Virus record (IMG/VR): IMGVR_UViG_2778261535_000001
Span: 1 to 7,239 of that record
Length of the DNA stretch: 7,239 nucleotides
Direction: 5' to 3' (one strand)
Source of the DNA: a virus
Lineage: Duplodnaviria; Heunggongvirae; Uroviricota; Caudoviricetes
A model generated the notes under the pieces. It ran no database searches. It was not told where the DNA came from and worked only from the letters and a program-made list of their open reading frames with translations. Shown in pieces: positions 1 through 7,239 of the stretch (positions are counted from its first letter, which is position 1; each line of letters opens with the position of its first letter). The translations under genes and the position numbers were made by a program.

Positions 1-828
1 ATTAACGTCCCATGCAGGTCGCTTGCTTGTAACTAGTTCGCCATTAACAGGAATGACTTTTCCTTCGACCAACCATTTCCCGTTAATATAGGTATTCCTG
101 AAAAACGTTCTGGAGGTAAAATAAGTTTTACCCTGCATATCAATAATTCTAGATGAAATAGCAGCCTCAAGTGATTCAAAAGCTAAAGAATCATTTGTAA
201 CACCATCACCTACAGCACCAAAATCTTTAGGGCTAACTGTGTCACGCATCTTATCCTGGAACGTTCTGTATACTGCTCCAGAACCATACTGAATAAACCA
301 ACCAAAACCACCAACAACTCCAGCGATTGCAGCATCGACATAATTACGCATTGAGCGATTATTTACAGCATCCTGCTCAAGTGATGGATCTGCAAGGTTA
401 GAAATTTTGTTTTGCTTTGCATCGTAATATTTTGCAAGCAAAGATGGTTTCATCAATGCGCGTCTGAACCACCCAAAACATTGCTGGATCAGCATCGTCA
501 GGTAGTCAAAGGCATCTTCATGCACTTCGGGGAAAAACTTTCCCTGATTGCGGAGGTCTGTCTCCTGCACTACATCAAGCACACGATCTATCGTAATTAG
601 CCAGCCAACAGCAAGCGGCGACGGAAGAACCACAGAACCGCCACTATAAGTGCCCGCCCCTGTTACCGTATAACCGGTATCCAGAACCAATTCTGTTACG
701 TTCCCGTTCAAGTCAGACACCTGAACAACCAGGTCGGATTTTTTGAAAATACGGAAGGTATACGGAAATGATGTCGTAACGCCGTTACCGGTGTATTCGT
801 TGTGGTCAACTTCGGTTGAGACCGTCAT
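1..828 (-). CDS. Tailspike / tail fibre protein, N-terminal 276 codons (gene continues beyond window start)
   Basis: Not in the ORF track because no stop lies in the window; hand translation of the minus strand from ATG 828..826 is open for 276 codons down to position 1. RBS GGAGA sits 6-7 nt upstream (plus 836..840). N-terminus MTVSTEVDHNEYTGNGVTTSFPYTFRIFKKSDLVVQV fits the pattern of the T7 gp17-type particle-binding domain (Y-x2-[DN]G-x4-F-x3-F ... VV). A DAVNNRSMRNYVD motif follows, then SPKDFGAVGDGVTNDSLAFESLEAAI, typical of the first rung of a pectate-lyase-like beta-helix receptor-binding or depolymerase domain. Confidence 0.75.
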   Translation of the reverse strand, partial: MTVSTEVDHNEYTGNGVTTSFPYTFRIFKKSDLVVQVSDLNGNVTELVLDTGYTVTGAGTYSGGSVVLPSPLAVGWLITIDRVLDVVQETDLRNQGKFFPEVHEDAFDYLTMLIQQCFGWFRRALMKPSLLAKYYDAKQNKISNLADPSLEQDAVNNRSMRNYVDAAIAGVVGGFGWFIQYGSGAVYRTFQDKMRDTVSPKDFGAVGDGVTNDSLAFESLEAAISSRIIDMQGKTYFTSRTFFRNTYINGKWLVEGKVIPVNGELVTSKRPAWDVN

Positions 829-931
829 GTTAAATCTCCAGATAGTCGCAGCACCCGTTGCGCCGCATATCTGGTTATTCTATTACCTGAAAAACCACAT
901 ATGGATAGAAAGACTGTAAATACGAATAGAT

Positions 932-948
932 ATTACCTTTCAGGTAAT
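932..948. promoter_or_regulatory. Operator-like 17-bp palindrome, site A (ATTACCTTTCAGGTAAT)
   Basis: Perfect 7-bp inverted arms ATTACCT / AGGTAAT around a 3-bp centre. Lies in the divergent intergenic region between the tailspike start (828) and the small + gene (1024). Near-identical copies at 2051..2067 and 2144..2160; an isolated left half-site ATTACCT at 882..888. Confidence 0.5.
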
Positions 949-985
949 TTGCAAAACGTGCTGGATAGCAAACAAATTATTTGAT

Positions 986-1003
986 ACTGTATAAATATAC
1001 AGT
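986..1003. promoter_or_regulatory. LexA (SOS) box overlapping a candidate promoter
   Basis: ACTGTATAAATATACAGT contains a perfect CTGT-N8-ACAG core (987..1002) with an AT-rich centre, matching the enterobacterial LexA consensus TACTGTATATATATACAGTA. A -35-like TTGATA (981..986) abuts it and a weak -10 TATTGC (1004..1009) follows at 17-nt spacing. The box is about 20 nt upstream of the start codon at 1024. Confidence 0.7.
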
Positions 1004-1023
1004 TATTGCATGGAGAAGATAAG

Positions 1024-1281
1024 ATGCAGCAGTATCACTATCCACTGGAAGACGGATTTACCGAAAGGATTCACACGCCGGGAGGCGTCAGATCACTGGT
1101 GGAGGGATCGCACTTGATGAAATTACTCCGGGATCTCGATAAGGATGGATTTAATGTCGATGGCCCACTTGCCGAACTGACTGCACTGATTAACTACGTC
1201 ACCAGCTCACAGATGTCTATGCAGGATCTGCAAACACATCTCGACTATTGTGCCGAACAACTACGAAAACAAACCACATAA
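1024..1281 (+). CDS. Small antirepressor-like protein (85 aa), stand-alone paralogue of the Ant C-terminal domain
   Basis: ATG at 1024 with RBS GGAG (1012..1015) 8 nt upstream; the ORF track's TTG at 1006 is judged a less likely start. Stop TAA at 1279..1281. Residues ~17-80 (HTPGGVRSLVEGSHLMKLLRDLDKDGFNVDGPLAELTALINYV...DLQTHLDY) align with the C-terminus of the 2429..3139 protein (HSPSGVLGLTESSLLMNLLNQLQEDGHDVSGAAAELTTMFCYI...DIQTHAEY) at roughly 40-45% identity by eye. Confidence 0.65.
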   Translation: MQQYHYPLEDGFTERIHTPGGVRSLVEGSHLMKLLRDLDKDGFNVDGPLAELTALINYVTSSQMSMQDLQTHLDYCAEQLRKQTT

Positions 1282-1303
1282 AGAAAAGGCCGCAAGAGCG
1301 GCC
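1275..1303. terminator. Bidirectional intrinsic terminator between convergent genes
   Basis: Perfect hairpin GGCCGC-AAGA-GCGGCC at 1288..1303. On the minus strand it is followed by TTTTCTTTATG (complement of 1275..1287); on the plus strand by the moderately T-rich TATCGTTTCGCTTTG. It sits between the + stop (1281) and the - stop (1303..1305). Confidence 0.55.
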
Positions 1304-2031
1304 TATCGTTTCGCTTTGTGCTCGTCCCAGCACGTTTTGCACCATGCCATTAAGCCATCCGCATTTTGATTATTAGGGTAAAAACTGGTTCGTTTTCTGC
1401 GGACATTACAAATTGGGCACCACTTCATATGGCGTGTATTCTTTGGGCCATCGAGACACCTTGCACACCACTTAGTCAATCCATCTGGATTTTTTGACGA
1501 TTTCCTGAATTTTTCATATGGAAGGTTTATTCTGCATCGCAAACACTGCTTGCGGGCACTTGAAACTTCGTTAGCTGATTCTTCTTTTGACGGCGATACA
1601 GAAGGTATTCTTGCTGGCTCTGATACTGCCTGAGGTGCTTTTTTAGGTGACTGAGACGATATGTCATCACCAGGGAATCTGTCATGATATGCCGGACGCG
1701 TTGACACTCCAGGTGGAAGCTCTGCTGTAAATGGCTTTGGCTGAATCAGCGCCCTCTCTTTTGCTGACTCCTGCTGTTTATAATATGTCTGGATTACCGA
1801 TATATCATAAGCAGGATGTACAGAAATATCCGGCGCATTACCTCCAGTTTTTTGAAACTGAGTGGAGGTGTGGTCTATCACCTGTGTACGATTAATCGTT
1901 ATTTCTCCATCTTCGGTCTTTATCGTTTTGCGATGATTAACGACTGTGCGATCAGAGACCTTAGTCCTGTTCTGGTTGATAACGTAAATAATCACCGTAA
2001 CAACACCAACAACTATCCAGAAAACTTCCAT
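1303..2031 (-). CDS. Membrane-anchored protein with two tandem C4 zinc ribbons (242 aa), function unknown
   Basis: ATG at 2031 with RBS GAGGAAAA upstream; stop TAG at 1303..1305. One N-terminal hydrophobic helix (FWIVVGVVTVIIYVI) followed by a cluster of basic residues, which by the positive-inside rule puts the C-terminus in the cytoplasm. A long Ser/Pro/Lys/Glu-rich low-complexity linker follows. The basic C-terminal ~80 aa carry two repeats of C-x2-C-x22-C-x2-C, each with DGLxxWCxxC (CLRC...NPDGLTKWCARC and CPIC...NADGLMAWCKTC). The gene looks AT-richer than its neighbours by eye. Confidence 0.7.
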   Translation of the reverse strand: MEVFWIVVGVVTVIIYVINQNRTKVSDRTVVNHRKTIKTEDGEITINRTQVIDHTSTQFQKTGGNAPDISVHPAYDISVIQTYYKQQESAKERALIQPKPFTAELPPGVSTRPAYHDRFPGDDISSQSPKKAPQAVSEPARIPSVSPSKEESANEVSSARKQCLRCRINLPYEKFRKSSKNPDGLTKWCARCLDGPKNTRHMKWCPICNVRRKRTSFYPNNQNADGLMAWCKTCWDEHKAKR

Positions 2032-2050
2032 TGCTTTTCCTCACAATAAC

Positions 2051-2067
2051 ATTACCTTAAAGGTAAT
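2051..2067. promoter_or_regulatory. Operator-like 17-bp palindrome, site B (ATTACCTTAAAGGTAAT)
   Basis: Same ATTACCT / AGGTAAT arms as site A. Lies 20-36 nt upstream of the start codon of the minus-strand zinc-ribbon gene. A degenerate fourth site with only the right arm (CTTTCAGGTGAT) is at about 2074..2085. Confidence 0.5.
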
Positions 2068-2143
2068 ATCTTGCTTTCAGGTGATCAAGCGTTAAACGCA
2101 ATCAACCAAATACGGTTGATTTTAATATTTATCCGCGTTTATC

Positions 2144-2160
2144 ATTACCTTTGAGGTAAA
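2144..2160. promoter_or_regulatory. Operator-like 17-bp palindrome, site C (ATTACCTTTGAGGTAAA)
   Basis: Arms ATTACCT / AGGTAAA (one mismatch). Directly abuts the -35-like TTTACA at 2161..2166 of the candidate plus-strand promoter for the ant leader. Centre-to-centre distance from site B is 93 bp. Confidence 0.5.
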
Positions 2161-2189
2161 TTTACATCGCACTCCTCTTGTGCCATAGT
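2161..2189 (+). promoter_or_regulatory. Candidate sigma70 promoter for the leader/ant transcript
   Basis: TTTACA (2161..2166), 17-nt spacer, CATAGT (2184..2189). Identified by eye only; the -10 is weak. Confidence 0.3.
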
Positions 2190-2193
2190 AATC

Positions 2194-2272
2194 GGGCACT
2201 GGCAAAATCCAGTGCCGGGATTGGCGTCCCGAGTTACTAAGTGGCGCATACCACGCCAGACGTGGTTTTTTT
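2194..2272 (+). ncRNA. Candidate structured leader or small RNA upstream of the antirepressor gene
   Basis: Perfect 8-bp hairpin GGCACTGG-CAAAAT-CCAGTGCC (2195..2216), a second small hairpin GGGA-TTGGCG-TCCC (2217..2230), then an intrinsic terminator. No credible ORF. The region also contains an approximately 19-bp imperfect direct copy (2236..2254) of the ant translation-initiation region (2409..2427). Confidence 0.3.
2250..2272 (+). terminator. Intrinsic terminator/attenuator within the ant leader
   Basis: GC-rich hairpin ACCACG-CCAGA-CGTGGT followed by a run of seven T (2266..2272). It is strand-specific: on the minus strand the U-tract would precede the stem. It lies 156 nt upstream of the ant start codon. 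Confidence 0.5.
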
Positions 2273-2428
2273 ATGCGTTAAGCACAGCTATATCCGAATT
2301 ATGGTGGGCTGGGCAGGGGTCCGAAAGGACGCCGGTACCACTTAGGCCGGTACGCCAACCTTGTCCAGTTCACCACCAGTAATTGGCGTTGCGGTGGTGA
2401 TTAAAATCACTAAGTGGAGATAACCACC

Positions 2429-3139
2429 ATGGCTAATGCTCAAACTGCCATCTTCAAATTTGAATCTGTTAACCCTATCCGTTCCATCATTATCGATGGC
2501 CAACCATGGTTTGTAGCCCAAGACGTTTGTAGTGCGCTGCGTATCCAAAACGTCACCCAAGCACTTGAAAAACTGGATGATGATGAAAGGTCTATGTTCA
2601 ACATAGGGCATGAACATCGTGCAATTTTTGACAGCCGAGTAAAAGAGATCAACATCATCTCCGAGTCAGGCCTCTACACACTGATCCTCCGCTGCCGCGA
2701 TGCAGTAACACCAGGCACTATCCCCTACCGCTTTCGTAAATGGGTTACAGGTGAGGTTCTTCCTCAGATCCGCCGCACCGGAAGTTACATTAAAAACTCG
2801 CTCCCGCAGGAAGAACGCATAAAGATGGTTGCCGACCAGGTAGCCAACGCCACAGCATCAGCAGTGATGCAGGCAATGAAGGTAGAGAACAAAACCTACA
2901 GCGCCCCACTGAAGCCCGGCTACCGCAGCCTGATTCATTCGCCGTCTGGTGTTCTCGGCCTGACGGAGAGCTCACTGCTGATGAATCTGCTGAACCAGTT
3001 ACAGGAAGACGGGCACGACGTATCGGGCGCGGCGGCGGAACTGACCACCATGTTCTGCTACATCGTCGGTGTGAGTAAATGCCTGCGTGATATCCAGACC
3101 CACGCGGAATACATCAACGACAAGGCAGGGTTCTTCTGA
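2429..3139 (+). CDS. BRO-N domain antirepressor (Ant-like), 236 aa
   Basis: ATG at 2429 with RBS GGAG (2416..2419) 9 nt upstream; the ORF track's GTG at 2414 is judged less likely. Stop TGA at 3137..3139. N-terminal half carries the hallmark BRO-N motifs (FKFESVNPIRSIIIDGQPWFVAQDVCSAL, ALEKLDDDE, ISESGLYTLIL, FRKWVTGEVLPQIRRTGSY). The C-terminal ~80 aa are homologous to the 85-aa protein at 1024..1281. Confidence 0.88.
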   Translation: MANAQTAIFKFESVNPIRSIIIDGQPWFVAQDVCSALRIQNVTQALEKLDDDERSMFNIGHEHRAIFDSRVKEINIISESGLYTLILRCRDAVTPGTIPYRFRKWVTGEVLPQIRRTGSYIKNSLPQEERIKMVADQVANATASAVMQAMKVENKTYSAPLKPGYRSLIHSPSGVLGLTESSLLMNLLNQLQEDGHDVSGAAAELTTMFCYIVGVSKCLRDIQTHAEYINDKAGFF

Positions 3140-3156
3140 CGGGCGGCGGTGGCATT

Positions 3157-3185
3157 CGTTAAAAACAAGGCCGCGAAAGCGGCCT
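3157..3185 (-). terminator. Intrinsic terminator for the minus-strand virion-gene transcript (also caps the + ant transcript)
   Basis: Perfect hairpin AGGCCGC-GAAA-GCGGCCT (3168..3185) with a GNRA-type loop. On the minus strand it is followed by TTGTTTTTAAC. Its stem is almost identical to the hairpin at 1288..1303. Confidence 0.55.
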
Positions 3186-3204
3186 GTGACATGTCACGCT
3201 CACG

Positions 3205-3345
3205 TTATGACAAGCCTATGTACCCTGCTACACCAGATAATATCAAAATAACTGCAACAGCAAATTCGCCATCGTCAATGATACATTTACGGTTCATAAC
3301 GCCAAGTGCAACAAGCGCAAACACAACAAGAATAAAAGCAATCAT
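3205..3345 (-). CDS. Small hydrophobic protein, 46 aa, two predicted transmembrane helices (not in ORF track)
   Basis: Minus-strand ATG at 3345 preceded by AAGGAT, which overlaps the TAA stop (3355..3357) of the upstream 824-aa gene; stop TAA at 3205..3207. Hand translation MIAFILVVFALVALGVMNRKCIIDDGEFAVAVILILSGVAGYIGLS shows two hydrophobic segments split by a charged turn (NRKCIIDDGE). The terminator follows immediately. Confidence 0.4.
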   Translation of the reverse strand: MIAFILVVFALVALGVMNRKCIIDDGEFAVAVILILSGVAGYIGLS

Positions 3346-3354
3346 TTCTCATCC

Positions 3355-5829
3355 TTATTGCGGAGTGACATCCTGTGGTCGCCACCAGTATGTCTGGTTA
3401 AACTCTTTCTTCGAACGTTGCTCCATTTTACGCAAATAACCTGGTGAAAAATACTCCTGCATCTGGTTAAAGATCATGTGATCGAGAGCCGCCTTTAAGT
3501 ACCAGAGATTCGCACCTGGCATCAGACCTTTCCCCAGCTTAACCAGATCACCACCAGTCTGCTCATTCTTCCCTTCCACAGCATTTAACGGTATGCCCTG
3601 AGCAATCTTCACTACGTCATCAACCAGACCAGCTACCGGGCCAAGCATCGACGCCAGCGCGCCGCTTCCGTACCTAGTGTGATCTGACAATAAAAAGTCA
3701 CCGTAAAGGCCAAGACCACCACCTTTCAGTAGAGCACCAAGCCAAAATTTAGCAGCATCTTCTCCTGTCATCTCGCGAGGATTACGACCAGACGCAAGGT
3801 CGTTAAGTTGCTGCGACAAAGCGCCAAGAATGGTCGTACTGGCAATAAACGTCGCAATATATGCCGCACGCCCACCAGCAGACGGCATACCCATAGCGCG
3901 TGACCAGTGACGCATAACCACCGAGATAGGGAACGATTTAAACAGGAAAACACTTCTCGTTAATTCACCTTTCCATGTTCCACGCTGAATACCAGAACCG
4001 GTTATCAGTTGCTCACGTGCTCCCGGTGTAATAACAGCCATATCAACTTCTTCAGTTACGGCACCGAGCAGTTTACGCATTGCCTCAAATTTCACGCGTT
4101 CAGGCTCACCAAGATGTTTAACTGCTGAATCAGGGATACGCATAATGCTTTCCGGTGTCAGCATCGTATTATTACCGTTCCCCCAGTCCTCCTGTTGCGC
4201 CAGCTTCCATACGCTCCAGTCTGTGTCAGTAATCCCTTTGCTTTTCAGGATACGAAAATCAGAGTCATCGAGGCTACGAAGGTCTGGTGTCCGTGACACT
4301 ACTTCTCCCAGGCTTCCCATCATGGTTACGCCATAGGCGCGCTTGTGCGCATCTGACCATGCTGTAAGCCCACTGGCACGCATTACCGCCGTTGCCGCCC
4401 AACGAGACACTGACGGCCCCATATTATCCATCGCCCAGCGGTTAACGCTGCCAAGTAGAGATTCCATCGCCAGACCAGCGCGGCGCGCCCGCGCAAGTTC
4501 TGTACGGTTCGTTGGGTCCATAGCTTCAAGCTGGTTGCGGAATAACTGGTTCATTGGAAGGTTGGTCACCTTCGCAGACAGATACATGGTTCCAAGATCA
4601 GAGAACGATGATAGCAACGCGGATCCGAGTCTGCTGGCAACCAGCCAGTTGCGGATATTGTCAGACCATCGCGCGATGTGCGGATTCGCTACAGGCTGTG
4701 TCTTTCCGGAAATAAAGTTGTACAGATTCTCTGTGTTGTTCGCCAGCCGCTCGACTTTACCGGTTTTACTCGGGTTAGCTGTTGCCGTTTCTGCCTTCAC
4801 CTGATCAAGAAGAGAGCGGAAAACATGATCTGGGTTTGGGCCATATGTTTCCACCAGTGCAATATCTTTACTGATACCTTCCAGGTGACCGACCATGATT
4901 TCCCATAGAGAGCGATCGCCATAAAGTTGCTGATATTGCAGATAGGAATCTGCATCTTTGAAATGTATCTGTCGTGATGCATTACCACGGTTAGCACGTG
5001 CGCCGGAAATTCGCATTCCGGTATCAGTAAGCTTATTCAGCCCACCAGTAGCGATCGTGTTATAAGCCTCTCCAAGAAATGCAGACAACTCGGCATCGTT
5101 CATCAGTTGTCCATCGGCTCGGATATAATATTTGCGATCCAGCTTACCTATAACATCGCTAACCCACTTATCCTTTGATACCGCCCCAACCTTTTCCATA
5201 GAATGATGTTGAGGGATCCCCCAGTTTTCGAGATAGCCAATGTCCCCACCAGCATCATTAAACCGGCGGCGCAGCAGCTCTGTAACTTCTCTCCACGCCT
5301 TAGCACCTTTTCTTGCTTTAGCATTGCCAGTATTTTGCCCCCGCATTTCATATACCAGGTCACGTACGCCCGCTTCATCTTCAAACAGACCAAAAAAGCG
5401 AGGATCAACTGCTTCGAATGCCTCCTGCAATTGACTCAATGCATAATCACGAGTGGCTTTTGTTCTGGACTCAACAGAGAGGAAATTCGATTTACCGTCT
5501 GCATTAAAAGCAATAGTACGGTTAAGAGCGCCAAGTTTCCCATCAGCCCCTTGATAGCTATTGATAAATTTATCCAATCTCTGACGTGCGGCTATAGTGA
5601 GGGCCACACGACGTTTCTTTAATGCCGCTTCTCGCTGTAATTCTTCAGATGCCAATTGTGCTGCACGATACAACCGCTCTGATTCGGAAAGTTGTCGCCA
5701 CGACATCGGGTCATCACGAGCAATGGAGCGCATATTTCGATAAATGCGGTCTTCAATGTTCTGTATTTCTCGCGCCGTTAACGTGCGCTGCGCCGCCTGC
5801 TGGACCGCTTGTATACATTCCTGTCTCAT
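3355..5829 (-). CDS. Large virion-associated protein, 824 aa (putative internal virion / DNA-ejection protein)
   Basis: Long ORF with ATG at 5829 and RBS GAGAGG 9 nt upstream; it starts 5 nt after the stop of the upstream gene, so the two are translationally coupled. It lies just upstream of the tailspike region, where podoviruses such as P22 and T7 encode ejection or core proteins. Gly-rich C-terminal segment. No motif I can assign with certainty; the function is by position and size only. Confidence 0.45.
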   Translation of the reverse strand: MRQECIQAVQQAAQRTLTAREIQNIEDRIYRNMRSIARDDPMSWRQLSESERLYRAAQLASEELQREAALKKRRVALTIAARQRLDKFINSYQGADGKLGALNRTIAFNADGKSNFLSVESRTKATRDYALSQLQEAFEAVDPRFFGLFEDEAGVRDLVYEMRGQNTGNAKARKGAKAWREVTELLRRRFNDAGGDIGYLENWGIPQHHSMEKVGAVSKDKWVSDVIGKLDRKYYIRADGQLMNDAELSAFLGEAYNTIATGGLNKLTDTGMRISGARANRGNASRQIHFKDADSYLQYQQLYGDRSLWEIMVGHLEGISKDIALVETYGPNPDHVFRSLLDQVKAETATANPSKTGKVERLANNTENLYNFISGKTQPVANPHIARWSDNIRNWLVASRLGSALLSSFSDLGTMYLSAKVTNLPMNQLFRNQLEAMDPTNRTELARARRAGLAMESLLGSVNRWAMDNMGPSVSRWAATAVMRASGLTAWSDAHKRAYGVTMMGSLGEVVSRTPDLRSLDDSDFRILKSKGITDTDWSVWKLAQQEDWGNGNNTMLTPESIMRIPDSAVKHLGEPERVKFEAMRKLLGAVTEEVDMAVITPGAREQLITGSGIQRGTWKGELTRSVFLFKSFPISVVMRHWSRAMGMPSAGGRAAYIATFIASTTILGALSQQLNDLASGRNPREMTGEDAAKFWLGALLKGGGLGLYGDFLLSDHTRYGSGALASMLGPVAGLVDDVVKIAQGIPLNAVEGKNEQTGGDLVKLGKGLMPGANLWYLKAALDHMIFNQMQEYFSPGYLRKMEQRSKKEFNQTYWWRPQDVTPQ

Positions 5830-5834
5830 TTAAT

Positions 5835-7239
5835 TTAACCTCTCAAGAAACACGCCACAGCGACATCAAACAGGCTGGAATCCTGTATTGCCTGCTCACT
5901 TTCCTTGTTCGCTTCATCCAGTACTTCACGAGCTCTGCGCGATTGTGAATTACCATCATCATCCAGCACGGTGATTATCATGTCAGGTGATTCAAGCAGC
6001 GAGTCTTCAGCTATGCGCAGATCAATATCTCCTGCCTGATCTGCCATCATTTTTTGTCCTGCCTGTTGCAATATTTTATCAGGCTCAAAAGGAGCTACTT
6101 CGTCTGGCGTCCTGACCTCTGCTGTTTTATAGAATGAAACAGCCTGAGCATTAAGTTCACTTTCTACCTGCTGTCGCCGTGCCAGTTCTGCTCGAGCTTC
6201 AAAAAACTGACCGCCAGGCTCATGCGGTGCCAACGCGTTACGGGAAAATTCTAGGCGTTCTTGTGCCTGCCGGATTAGTTGGTCAATATCGCGAAGTCTG
6301 ACCTGTTTATCTGATCGAGCACGAGATAAAGCCTTACCGCTACCGGTTGGCTCTTCTGCAAGAATTTGTGCGCGCTGTTCAGTGAGATTTTCAATAATTC
6401 GTTGGCTATTAGCGATTTCAGACTGGTAAACCTGTCTATCGCCACGCGGCAAAAGCTGCGCGGCCTGTTCTTCAAGCAACCGATTTTCTATAGCGCGCGC
6501 CGTTACTCCATCATCTACAGATGACAGAGCCTCATTAACTGCCTGAGACAGCAGACTCTTGCGCCCAGGAATTTCACTGAAAGATGCAGACTCAACAATG
6601 CTGGCAACGTCTACAGGTCTCCCCTGGCTAACATCAGACATGGCTTTTCGCAGAGCCTGAATGTGCGAATTACGCGAAAGCACGTTGATCGGCACGCCGG
6701 GAGCAATATCAATTTCAGCATGATGAGCGGCATTCGCCGCCAGTGCAGCATCGATATCAACTGGTGAAAAATTTGGTGCGCTTGTAGACTCGCCGCGAGA
6801 GTTAATAAATCTGCCGACACCACCAAACGCCACCCCAAGAACAGCATCAATAGCAATTGCCTGTCGATCCAACACATCATACTGGTTAGCCATTTCGCTA
6901 TAGCCACCATCACGAAGCGTTTTTGCAGTAAGCCCACGCTGTGCCATACCGAACGCAATATTTGTACCTGCGGCATAGGCAATATCTGGCGTTGCACGTA
7001 CTGCTGTTGCTGCGGCGCGTCGCACTGAACTTTCACCCGTCCGCGCAAGCTGAGCCGCCACACCTTCCGCCAGCGCACCACCAGCACGTAACCCGAAGCT
7101 CATAGGGATCAGTGTTCCGGCACCAGCAGTAATACCCTGCACTAATCCCGCTTCCTGCGCCGTCCTGAAATCAACACCCTGTGCTGTCAGCCGTTCAAAC
7201 TCAGAAAAACCCTGTAGCGAAGTTACCGCCGCAGCACCT
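5835..7239 (-). CDS. Large virion-associated protein, C-terminal 467 aa (5' end beyond window; putative internal virion / ejection protein)
   Basis: The frame stays open from the window edge (7238) to the TAA at 5835..5837; the track's start at 7142 is only an internal GVG-context GTG codon. Ala/Gly-rich N-proximal part, then a charged region predicted to be coiled-coil (QLIRQAQERLEFSRN...ARAELARRQQVESELNAQ). Co-oriented and coupled with the 824-aa gene. Confidence 0.45.
   Translation of the reverse strand, partial: GAAAVTSLQGFSEFERLTAQGVDFRTAQEAGLVQGITAGAGTLIPMSFGLRAGGALAEGVAAQLARTGESSVRRAAATAVRATPDIAYAAGTNIAFGMAQRGLTAKTLRDGGYSEMANQYDVLDRQAIAIDAVLGVAFGGVGRFINSRGESTSAPNFSPVDIDAALAANAAHHAEIDIAPGVPINVLSRNSHIQALRKAMSDVSQGRPVDVASIVESASFSEIPGRKSLLSQAVNEALSSVDDGVTARAIENRLLEEQAAQLLPRGDRQVYQSEIANSQRIIENLTEQRAQILAEEPTGSGKALSRARSDKQVRLRDIDQLIRQAQERLEFSRNALAPHEPGGQFFEARAELARRQQVESELNAQAVSFYKTAEVRTPDEVAPFEPDKILQQAGQKMMADQAGDIDLRIAEDSLLESPDMIITVLDDDGNSQSRRAREVLDEANKESEQAIQDSSLFDVAVACFLRG

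Follow-up and report, generated by a model that had tools for sequence, protein, structure and literature searches.

An Ant-C domain common to two antirepressor-type genes with different predicted controls in a phiV10-like phage

We analyzed a stretch of 7,239 nucleotides (nt) of viral DNA (positions 1 to 7,239 of the IMG/VR record IMGVR_UViG_2778261535_000001; hereafter, the window). By megablast, the window belongs to a podovirus of the phiV10/epsilon15 type (genus Uetakevirus) of Escherichia coli, and HEMP4, phiv142-3, and phiV10 match it at 97-98% identity. It carries two genes, here called the small and the large ant gene, whose products of 85 and 236 amino acids (aa) have a homologous domain, which we call Ant-C. 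Our analysis makes it probable that these are two antirepressors with one effector domain, the small one gated by LexA and the large one by C4 and IsrK-like RNAs, and that the near-identical hairpins found after them are copies of a junction terminator that bound a block of 1,881 base pairs (bp). Both genes are of known kinds, whereas their relationship and the assignment of the domain appear to be undescribed in the literature searched. Coordinates of all features are collected in Table 1.

Homology and distribution of the Ant-C domain

When the two proteins were compared by BLASTP, residues 2-75 of the small protein aligned without gaps to residues 155-228 of the large one, with 31 identities in 74 positions (42%) and an E value of 1e-15. 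The Smith-Waterman score was 161, as opposed to 26.8 ± 4.4 (maximum 63) in 2000 shuffles, i.e., z = 30. A first-pass annotation of this DNA, made from the letters alone, had described the 85-aa protein as homologous to the C-terminus of the Bro-N protein at roughly 40-45% identity; the alignment agrees with this estimate, lies clearly above the shuffled controls, and contains the DLQTH/DIQTH and AELT motifs.

The small protein matches chain E of PDB entry 5D50 (E 1.3e-47, residues 2-85 against 3-86; about 88% identity by tblastn) and phrog_450 (E 1.4e-47), and scans of Pfam, NCBIfam, and PADLOC found no family for it. The C-terminal domain of the large protein also matches 5D50_E (E 1.7e-13, residues 155-231) and phrog_450 (E 6.4e-36) and, judged by these matches, is a member of the SPC32H-Ant family. 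The coding DNA of the paired domains is only 48.6% identical when aligned by codons, and 32% identical at third positions. By this measure, the two coding sequences diverged anciently and the duplication of the domain is old.

Neither Pfam nor NCBIfam has a model of Ant-C. Word-indexed protein searches gave only short close relatives, and the fused forms surfaced only when 1.84 billion representative proteins were searched exhaustively with a profile, which gave just 63 clusters with the domain. Some members are stand-alone domains of 80-95 aa; in the others, which are larger, the domain forms the extreme C-terminus and is joined to N-terminal partners of five kinds (KilA-N-type): Bro-N, AntA, Phage_pRha, ORF6N, and P22_AR_N. 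Among 50,697 phage records, 32 encode Ant-C; 19 of these have a small and a large form, 13 have a small form only, and none has a large form only. A Rep of the 5D50_A family is encoded in every one of the 32, including HEMP4 and phiv142-3, and the Rep of the relatives is homologous to 5D50_A over its full length.

A natural chimera of the two paralogs was found at the small-ant position of another locus (P0139; L129 3001-3255). When its halves were searched separately by BLASTN, the promoter and the 5' half proved to be of the small-ant type, while the 3' half matches the C-terminal domains of large Ants at the DNA level; the genes downstream of it (a 48-aa gene and a YafO toxin) are those found after large Ants. 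Such a gene is the product expected from recombination between paralogous domains, and its existence argues that the two halves are functionally compatible. TL-2011b (L004, NC_019445.1) has three Ant-C genes, namely a small gene with a LexA box (3333-3587), a Bro-N gene behind a C4 RNA (4738-5433), and a P22_AR_N-type Ant beside an Arc-like repressor and a sar RNA (6609-7553).

As a separate observation, loci of Raoultella/Klebsiella (P0130; L130-L132 3001-3288) encode a stand-alone 95-aa domain of the large-Ant type, in which the linker residues found ahead of the domain in Bro-N fusions are retained; about 1 kb of uncalled DNA lies upstream. It may be the remnant of a large antirepressor after loss of the N-terminal domain.

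Through these matches, a very common family of 85-86-aa "hypothetical" proteins, for which PHROG 450 lists the function as unknown, acquires a function and a solved structure as template, and the unannotated C-terminal part of large antirepressors of the Bro-N, AntA, Rha, ORF6N, and P22 types acquires a template as well. If the Ant-C forms bind the same Rep, prophages of this kind would have one repressor respond both to DNA damage and to an RNA-based immunity circuit. Such a shared target, if true, bears on predicting the induction of phiV10-like prophages in pathogenic E. coli (O157 and avian pathogenic E. coli). We regard the point as incremental; it is ordinary biology with a modestly new link, and no new principle is involved.

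Predicted control of the two antirepressor genes

The SPC32H antirepression switch of Ant, Rep, and LexA was reportedly worked out by Kim and Ryu in the Journal of Virology in 2013 and by Kim et al. in PNAS in 2016, with PDB entries 5D50 and 5D4Z. According to secondary sources, production of SPC32H Ant follows the cleavage of LexA, and the protein inhibits the repressor through protein-protein contact; secondary accounts, including PMC9638917, describe a tetrameric Ant that binds two dimers of Rep and breaks up its DNA-binding tetramer. The window resembles SPC32H in its small Ant (88% identical over the full length), its LexA box, its junction hairpin, and the position of ant between the tailspike gene and the virion-protein operon. 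It differs in that SPC32H has one antirepressor, whereas the window adds a larger second one with a paralogous domain, and in that the Rep of the E. coli lineage is just 42% identical to that of SPC32H.

The LexA box of the small gene is the sole CTGT-N8-ACAG in the window. Across the 32 related loci with at least 78 nt of upstream sequence, the box is perfect in 28, at a fixed distance of 37-40 nt upstream of the ATG, and the four others have ATGT-N8-ACAG, i.e., one mismatch. Thus, the first-pass claim that the small gene is SOS-gated holds, and its question of whether the mini version recurs, and always with a LexA box, can be answered: it recurs, and the box is essentially always there. In the reading we favor, gene 1 would be Ant-C alone and host LexA would repress it at the promoter box; upon DNA damage LexA would be cleaved and Ant made, which would then bind the prophage Rep and take its DNA-binding tetramer apart. 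For the window's small Ant, Rep binding and tetramer disassembly are carried over from the 88%-identical SPC32H protein and would hold by analogy.

The large gene lies behind a non-coding leader, and the first-pass description of this leader as attenuated is borne out by an isrK-like RNA with an intrinsic terminator, followed by a C4 antisense RNA. The Rfam model c4-a1b1 scores 44.3 bits at 2183-2235, slightly under its gathering score of 46.7. Two segments of C4 are exactly complementary to downstream targets (2352-2358 to a2 and 2338-2345 to b2), and the same segments are also complementary to decoys upstream (2352-2358 to 2221-2227 and 2338-2345 to 2237-2244). Of the related loci with a large Ant, 15 were scanned, and all have both RNAs upstream of it. 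Judged by this arrangement, the large gene is an antirepressor of the P1-ImmI type.

The P1/P7 ImmI region (c4 - icd - ant) and the window have in common a C4-family RNA processed from the ant transcript, sites complementary to the C4 loops both upstream (a1/b1) and downstream (a2/b2), b2 being at the ribosome-binding site, and a likely operator of the primary repressor at the leader promoter. In contrast to P1/P7, no icd-like open reading frame (ORF) is present in the 48 nt from the C4 end (2380) to the ATG at 2429, so that C4 would target the ant Shine-Dalgarno sequence directly; the antirepressor is a fusion of Bro-N and Ant-C, the phage is a podovirus, and its Rep family is unlike P1 C1. 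We propose that gene 2, Ant-C behind Bro-N, would be wired like P1/P7 ImmI. A promoter abutted by a likely Rep operator would drive the leader, and most transcripts would end at the IsrK-like terminator; read-through would yield C4 RNA, and translation would be blocked by pairing of its two loops with sites at the ant Shine-Dalgarno sequence and shortly before it. Given this block and the terminator, gene 2 would be silent in the lysogen and would act mainly on infection or when C4 control is overcome.

The isrK-orf45-anrP region of Gifsy-1, as presented in the corresponding passages of Hershko-Shalev 2016 (PMC4825925), similarly has an isrK-matching leader and a terminator that is read through to reach an antirepressor-like gene. 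The window differs in having no orf45 equivalent, i.e., no ORF on the plus strand between 2272 and 2429 that is in frame with its start and stop overlapping ant. Also in common with the Gifsy system, as far as the relevant sections of PMC4825925 and of Lemire 2011 (PMC3121763) describe it, is the presence in one prophage of a LexA-gated small and an RNA-gated larger antirepressor. The Gifsy repressors GfoR and GtgR are of a different family from Rep, and the relevant sections of the two papers describe no effector domain common to the two Gifsy antirepressors.

With P22 ImmI (mnt-arc-ant, sar RNA) and the modular KilA-N/Bro-N regulators, the large protein shares a KilA-N-class N-terminal domain followed by a variable C-terminal domain. 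The P22_AR_N-type Ant of TL-2011b, which stands with Arc and sar RNA, bears an Ant-C that is 92% identical to the window's. In contrast to P22, the large gene of the window uses Bro-N and a C4 RNA instead of P22_AR_N, Mnt/Arc, and sar.

A further input is suggested by the palindrome TTACC-N5-GGTAA, which occurs three times in the window (Table 1). In the genomes of phiV10 (L127) and SPC32H (L128) it occurs 8-10 times per genome, as opposed to an expected 0.04, and clusters on both sides of rep and in several promoter regions, both antirepressor promoters included. It is likely the Rep operator. Because likely Rep operators stand at both antirepressor promoters, both antirepressors would be under Rep control too.

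Over-expression of the Bro-N anti-repressor of ZX5 (ORF4) lowered the prophage titer about 1000-fold, i.e., gave less lysogeny (PMC9782041), and the C-terminal domain of this protein is 97.7% identical to the window's. In the phiV10 reference (L001, NC_007804.2; 2390-3069), a frameshift within Ant-C divides the Bro-N antirepressor into p23 (194 aa) and p22 (29 aa). Either the sequence has an error here, or the second antirepressor has been inactivated naturally.

Junction hairpins, the 1,881-bp block, and alternative readings

The first-pass annotation had also reported a near-identical hairpin after each gene, and the stems GGCCGC-AAGA-GCGGCC and GGCCGC-GAAA-GCGGCC are indeed found where it had placed them. 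Hairpin 1 follows the small ant stop by 6 nt and overlaps the stop codon of a 242-aa gene on the minus strand; hairpin 2 follows the large ant stop by 28 nt and is the junction terminator common to SPC32H, phiV10, and Tyrion. On the minus strand, each is followed by a T-run (TTTTCTTTAT after hairpin 1 and TGTTTTTAA after hairpin 2) and qualifies as an intrinsic terminator. Hairpin 2 does not qualify on the plus strand, where GTGACATG comes after it, and hairpin 1, with ATCGTTTCGCTTTG after it, is marginal. Since the T-runs are on the minus strand, the hairpins would primarily terminate the convergent 242-aa and 46-aa genes; possibly they are bidirectional as well.

DNA similarity of the two 3' regions is limited to a 26-nt block (1279-1304 against 3160-3185) with 22 of 26 positions identical (85%) and a local score of 32, the maximum in 500 shuffles being 27. 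The hairpin occurs once in each of the complete phiV10 and SPC32H genomes, at the ant/virion junction. In SPC32H, 66FD, and several E. coli contigs, the order is small ant, one hairpin, GTGACATGTCAC, and the 46-aa gene. In one such locus (L026), the left flank and AAGA loop are exactly those of hairpin 1 in the window, and the right flank is that of hairpin 2; three others (L098, L015, and L025) have the same flanks around a GAAA loop. The small Ants of these single-hairpin relatives are 98-100% identical to the window's. No hairpin follows the small gene in phiV10, phiv142-3, Tyrion, L029, L042, and L112, and in L036 and L101 the AAGA hairpin follows it and is succeeded by other cargo. The stem is invariant among relatives and the loops vary. 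We considered whether hairpin 1 belongs to the 242-aa gene alone, and excluded this because the AAGA hairpin follows the small gene beside other cargo (L036, L101) and beside the 46-aa gene (L026).

In comparison with these relatives, the window has the single-hairpin layout and, in addition, a block of 1,881 bp with a copy of the junction hairpin at each end. The mixed flanks of the single-hairpin relatives suggest that the hairpins mark the ends of a block gained or lost at the junction, and recombination in either stem arm would leave both the AAGA and the GAAA variants. On this evidence, the hairpin pair reflects a block gain or loss (insertion or deletion) that is more recent than the domain duplication. 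The block, present or absent among close relatives, comprises the 242-aa gene, operators, the leader, and the large ant; direct repeats of 18-26 nt bound it, and the U-tracts of the hairpins would serve the minus-strand genes.

Beside the junction hairpin in nearly all relatives lies the 12-bp palindrome GTGACATGTCAC. Copies are at 2262 and 19493 in phiV10 (L127) and at 2145, 19634, and 38629 in SPC32H (L128); the 2-3 copies per phage genome are far above chance for a 12-mer, and at least two sites adjoin terminators at convergent junctions.

The hairpins bear on two other explanations of their likeness. According to the first-pass annotation, a cassette of domain and terminator was duplicated or shuffled. 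Shuffling of the domain stands, given the five N-terminal partners and the natural chimera; duplication as one unit, after which the second copy would have gained Bro-N and the leader, is in our view quite unlikely. The pairing of domain and hairpin does recur for both paralogs, since the hairpin lies within 12 nt of the small gene in SPC32H and 66FD, and the same hairpin with GTGACATGTCAC lies 9-12 nt after the large gene in Tyrion and L112. However, coding DNA that is 48.6% identical (32% at third positions) and a hairpin block that is 85% identical could be equally old only if the hairpin is under strong constraint or has recently been homogenized. Moreover, both T-runs are on the opposite strand, hairpin 1 in the window and in TL-2011b also terminates the 242-aa gene, and the six relatives listed above have no hairpin after the small gene. 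Alternatively, the likeness could be a coincidence or convergence of two generic GC-rich terminators with the same 6-bp stem. The pattern AAGGCCGC-N4-GCGGCCT does occur in at least 120 IMG/VR viral loci; among the matches listed, 31 are related to this locus and 89 are unrelated, and about two thirds of the hairpins in the unrelated loci listed have A- or T-rich flanks and are terminator-like. In addition, a minus-strand terminator functionally requires the A-run that both hairpins have on their left. The stem is found in many unrelated viral contigs, but within the phiV10 and SPC32H genomes the hairpin is single-copy at this very junction. As the AAGA-loop and GAAA-loop relatives combine the exact left flank of hairpin 1 with the exact right flank of hairpin 2, and the stem stays invariant in relatives while the loops vary, we consider convergence highly improbable.

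A different question is what the second domain does. We propose that the C-terminal domain of gene 2 would bind the same Rep as the small Ant, on the basis of homology, the co-occurrence of Rep, and the chimera; homology and context likewise lend good support to the first-pass suggestion of two effectors with the same likely target and different regulation, as far as sequence can tell. Several points weigh against this reading. The immunity region lies outside the window, and Rep is known here through the records of relatives and not from this prophage. The C-terminal domain is 42% identical to the small Ant, and it could have another partner or serve oligomerization alone. The small Ants of SPC32H and of the window lineage are 88% identical while the Reps are about 42% identical (phiV10 L127 32087-32671 against SPC32H L128 33739-34335; 55% in the first 60 residues), a conservation gap that is unexplained by simple one-to-one co-evolution. 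The effector is far better conserved than its presumed target.

One alternative is that the large C-terminal domain is homologous to Ant but has another role, either as a tetramerization module for a Bro-N effector or with the repressors of heteroimmune prophages as targets. In its favor, the two domains within one genome are merely 42% identical; SPC32H Ant is itself a tetramer, as stated in the passage of PMC9638917 that concerns it, so the conserved surface may partly serve self-association; Salmonella antirepressors that hit non-cognate repressors are documented (PMC3121763); and TL-2011b has three Ant-C genes. Against it, the large form never occurs without the small form or without a Rep-family gene in the phage records, the chimera of both halves at the small-ant position argues for compatibility, and ZX5 ORF4 pushed its own phage towards lysis. 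We consider this alternative unlikely. A wider proposal, which is quite possible and which we hold tentatively, is that Ant-C may be a portable, Rep-specific "warhead" carried on varied N-terminal domains (none, Bro-N, AntA, Rha, ORF6N, or P22_AR_N) and circuits (LexA, C4/IsrK, or Mnt/Arc/sar), such that inputs would converge on one repressor per genome, with hairpin repeats and paralogous domains as recombination points that add, remove, or hybridize inputs.

Gene map and neighboring features

Table 1. Positions of genes, domains, RNAs, and DNA motifs in the window
Feature	Position	Strand	Remarks
Tailspike N-terminus	1-828	-	
TTACC-N5-GGTAA palindrome	933-947		between tailspike start and small ant promoter
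LexA (SOS) box CTGTATAAATATACAG	987-1002	+	perfect; 37 nt upstream of the small ant ATG
Shine-Dalgarno sequence GGAGAAG of small ant	1012-1018	+	
Small antirepressor gene, 85 aa, SPC32H Ant type	1024-1281 (codons 1024-1278)	+	matches to PDB 5D50 chain E and phrog_450
Hairpin 1, AGGCCGC-AAGA-GCGGCCT	1287-1304 (core GGCCGC stem 1288-1303)		core stem -13.3 kcal/mol
242-aa cargo gene	1303-2031	-	phrog_6762, E 2e-143
Non-coding leader	2040-2428		
TTACC-N5-GGTAA palindrome	2052-2066		adjoins start of 242-aa gene
TTACC-N5-GGTAA palindrome	2145-2159		abuts -35 of leader promoter
Leader promoter, TTTACA and CATAGT	2161-2166 and 2184-2189	+	
IsrK-like leader RNA	2196-2272	+	Rfam isrK RF01394, 67.2 bits (gathering 50)
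a1/b1 decoy sites in IsrK-like leader	2221-2227, 2237-2244	+	
Intrinsic terminator of IsrK-like leader	stem 2250-2266, then T7 run	+	
C4 antisense RNA	2297-2380	+	Rfam RF01695, 66 bits (gathering 45)
a2 target of C4, TTGGCGT	2383-2389	+	exact complement of C4 2352-2358
b2 target of C4, CTAAGTGG	2410-2417	+	exact complement of C4 2338-2345; overlaps ant GGAG Shine-Dalgarno sequence
Large antirepressor gene, 236 aa (Bro-N protein)	2429-3139 (codons 2429-3136)	+	start ATG 2429
Bro-N domain (PF02498)	aa 17-112, 2477-2764	+	Pfam 71.3 bits (cut-off 25.6)
Ant-C domain (SPC32H-Ant-like) of large protein	aa 155-231, 2891-3121	+	
Hairpin 2, AGGCCGC-GAAA-GCGGCCT	3168-3185 (core stem 3169-3184)		core stem -14.1 kcal/mol
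12-bp perfect palindrome GTGACATGTCAC	3186-3197		directly beside junction hairpin in nearly all relatives
46-aa membrane protein gene	3205-3345	-	phrog_7892; last of virion-protein operon converging on hairpin 2
Two large virion-protein genes	beyond the 46-aa gene	-	

Parts of the locus are present in 551 of 5426 complete E. coli genomes (about 10%), and 77 of the 551 cover at least 80% of the region. Counterparts of the 46-aa gene are p21 in phiV10 and SPC32H_019 in SPC32H. The 242-aa protein has a membrane helix at its N-terminus and two C-terminal CxxC...CxxC zinc ribbons, and its tail has zinc-ribbon-type similarity to endonuclease VII and to Lar-like families; scans of Pfam, NCBIfam, and PADLOC assigned the protein to no family. 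The gene is found in some relatives only and has a likely Rep operator at its start, and it looks like a moron.

Finally, a perfect 15-nt inverted repeat (TGCAAAACGTGCTGG / CCAGCACGTTTTGCA, at 950-964 and 1327-1341) flanks the small ant and hairpin 1, and its second arm lies in the 242-aa gene, where it encodes the CKTCW zinc-knuckle. Either arm is present by itself in relatives without the other, and the repeat may be due to chance or be a site of RNA-RNA pairing.

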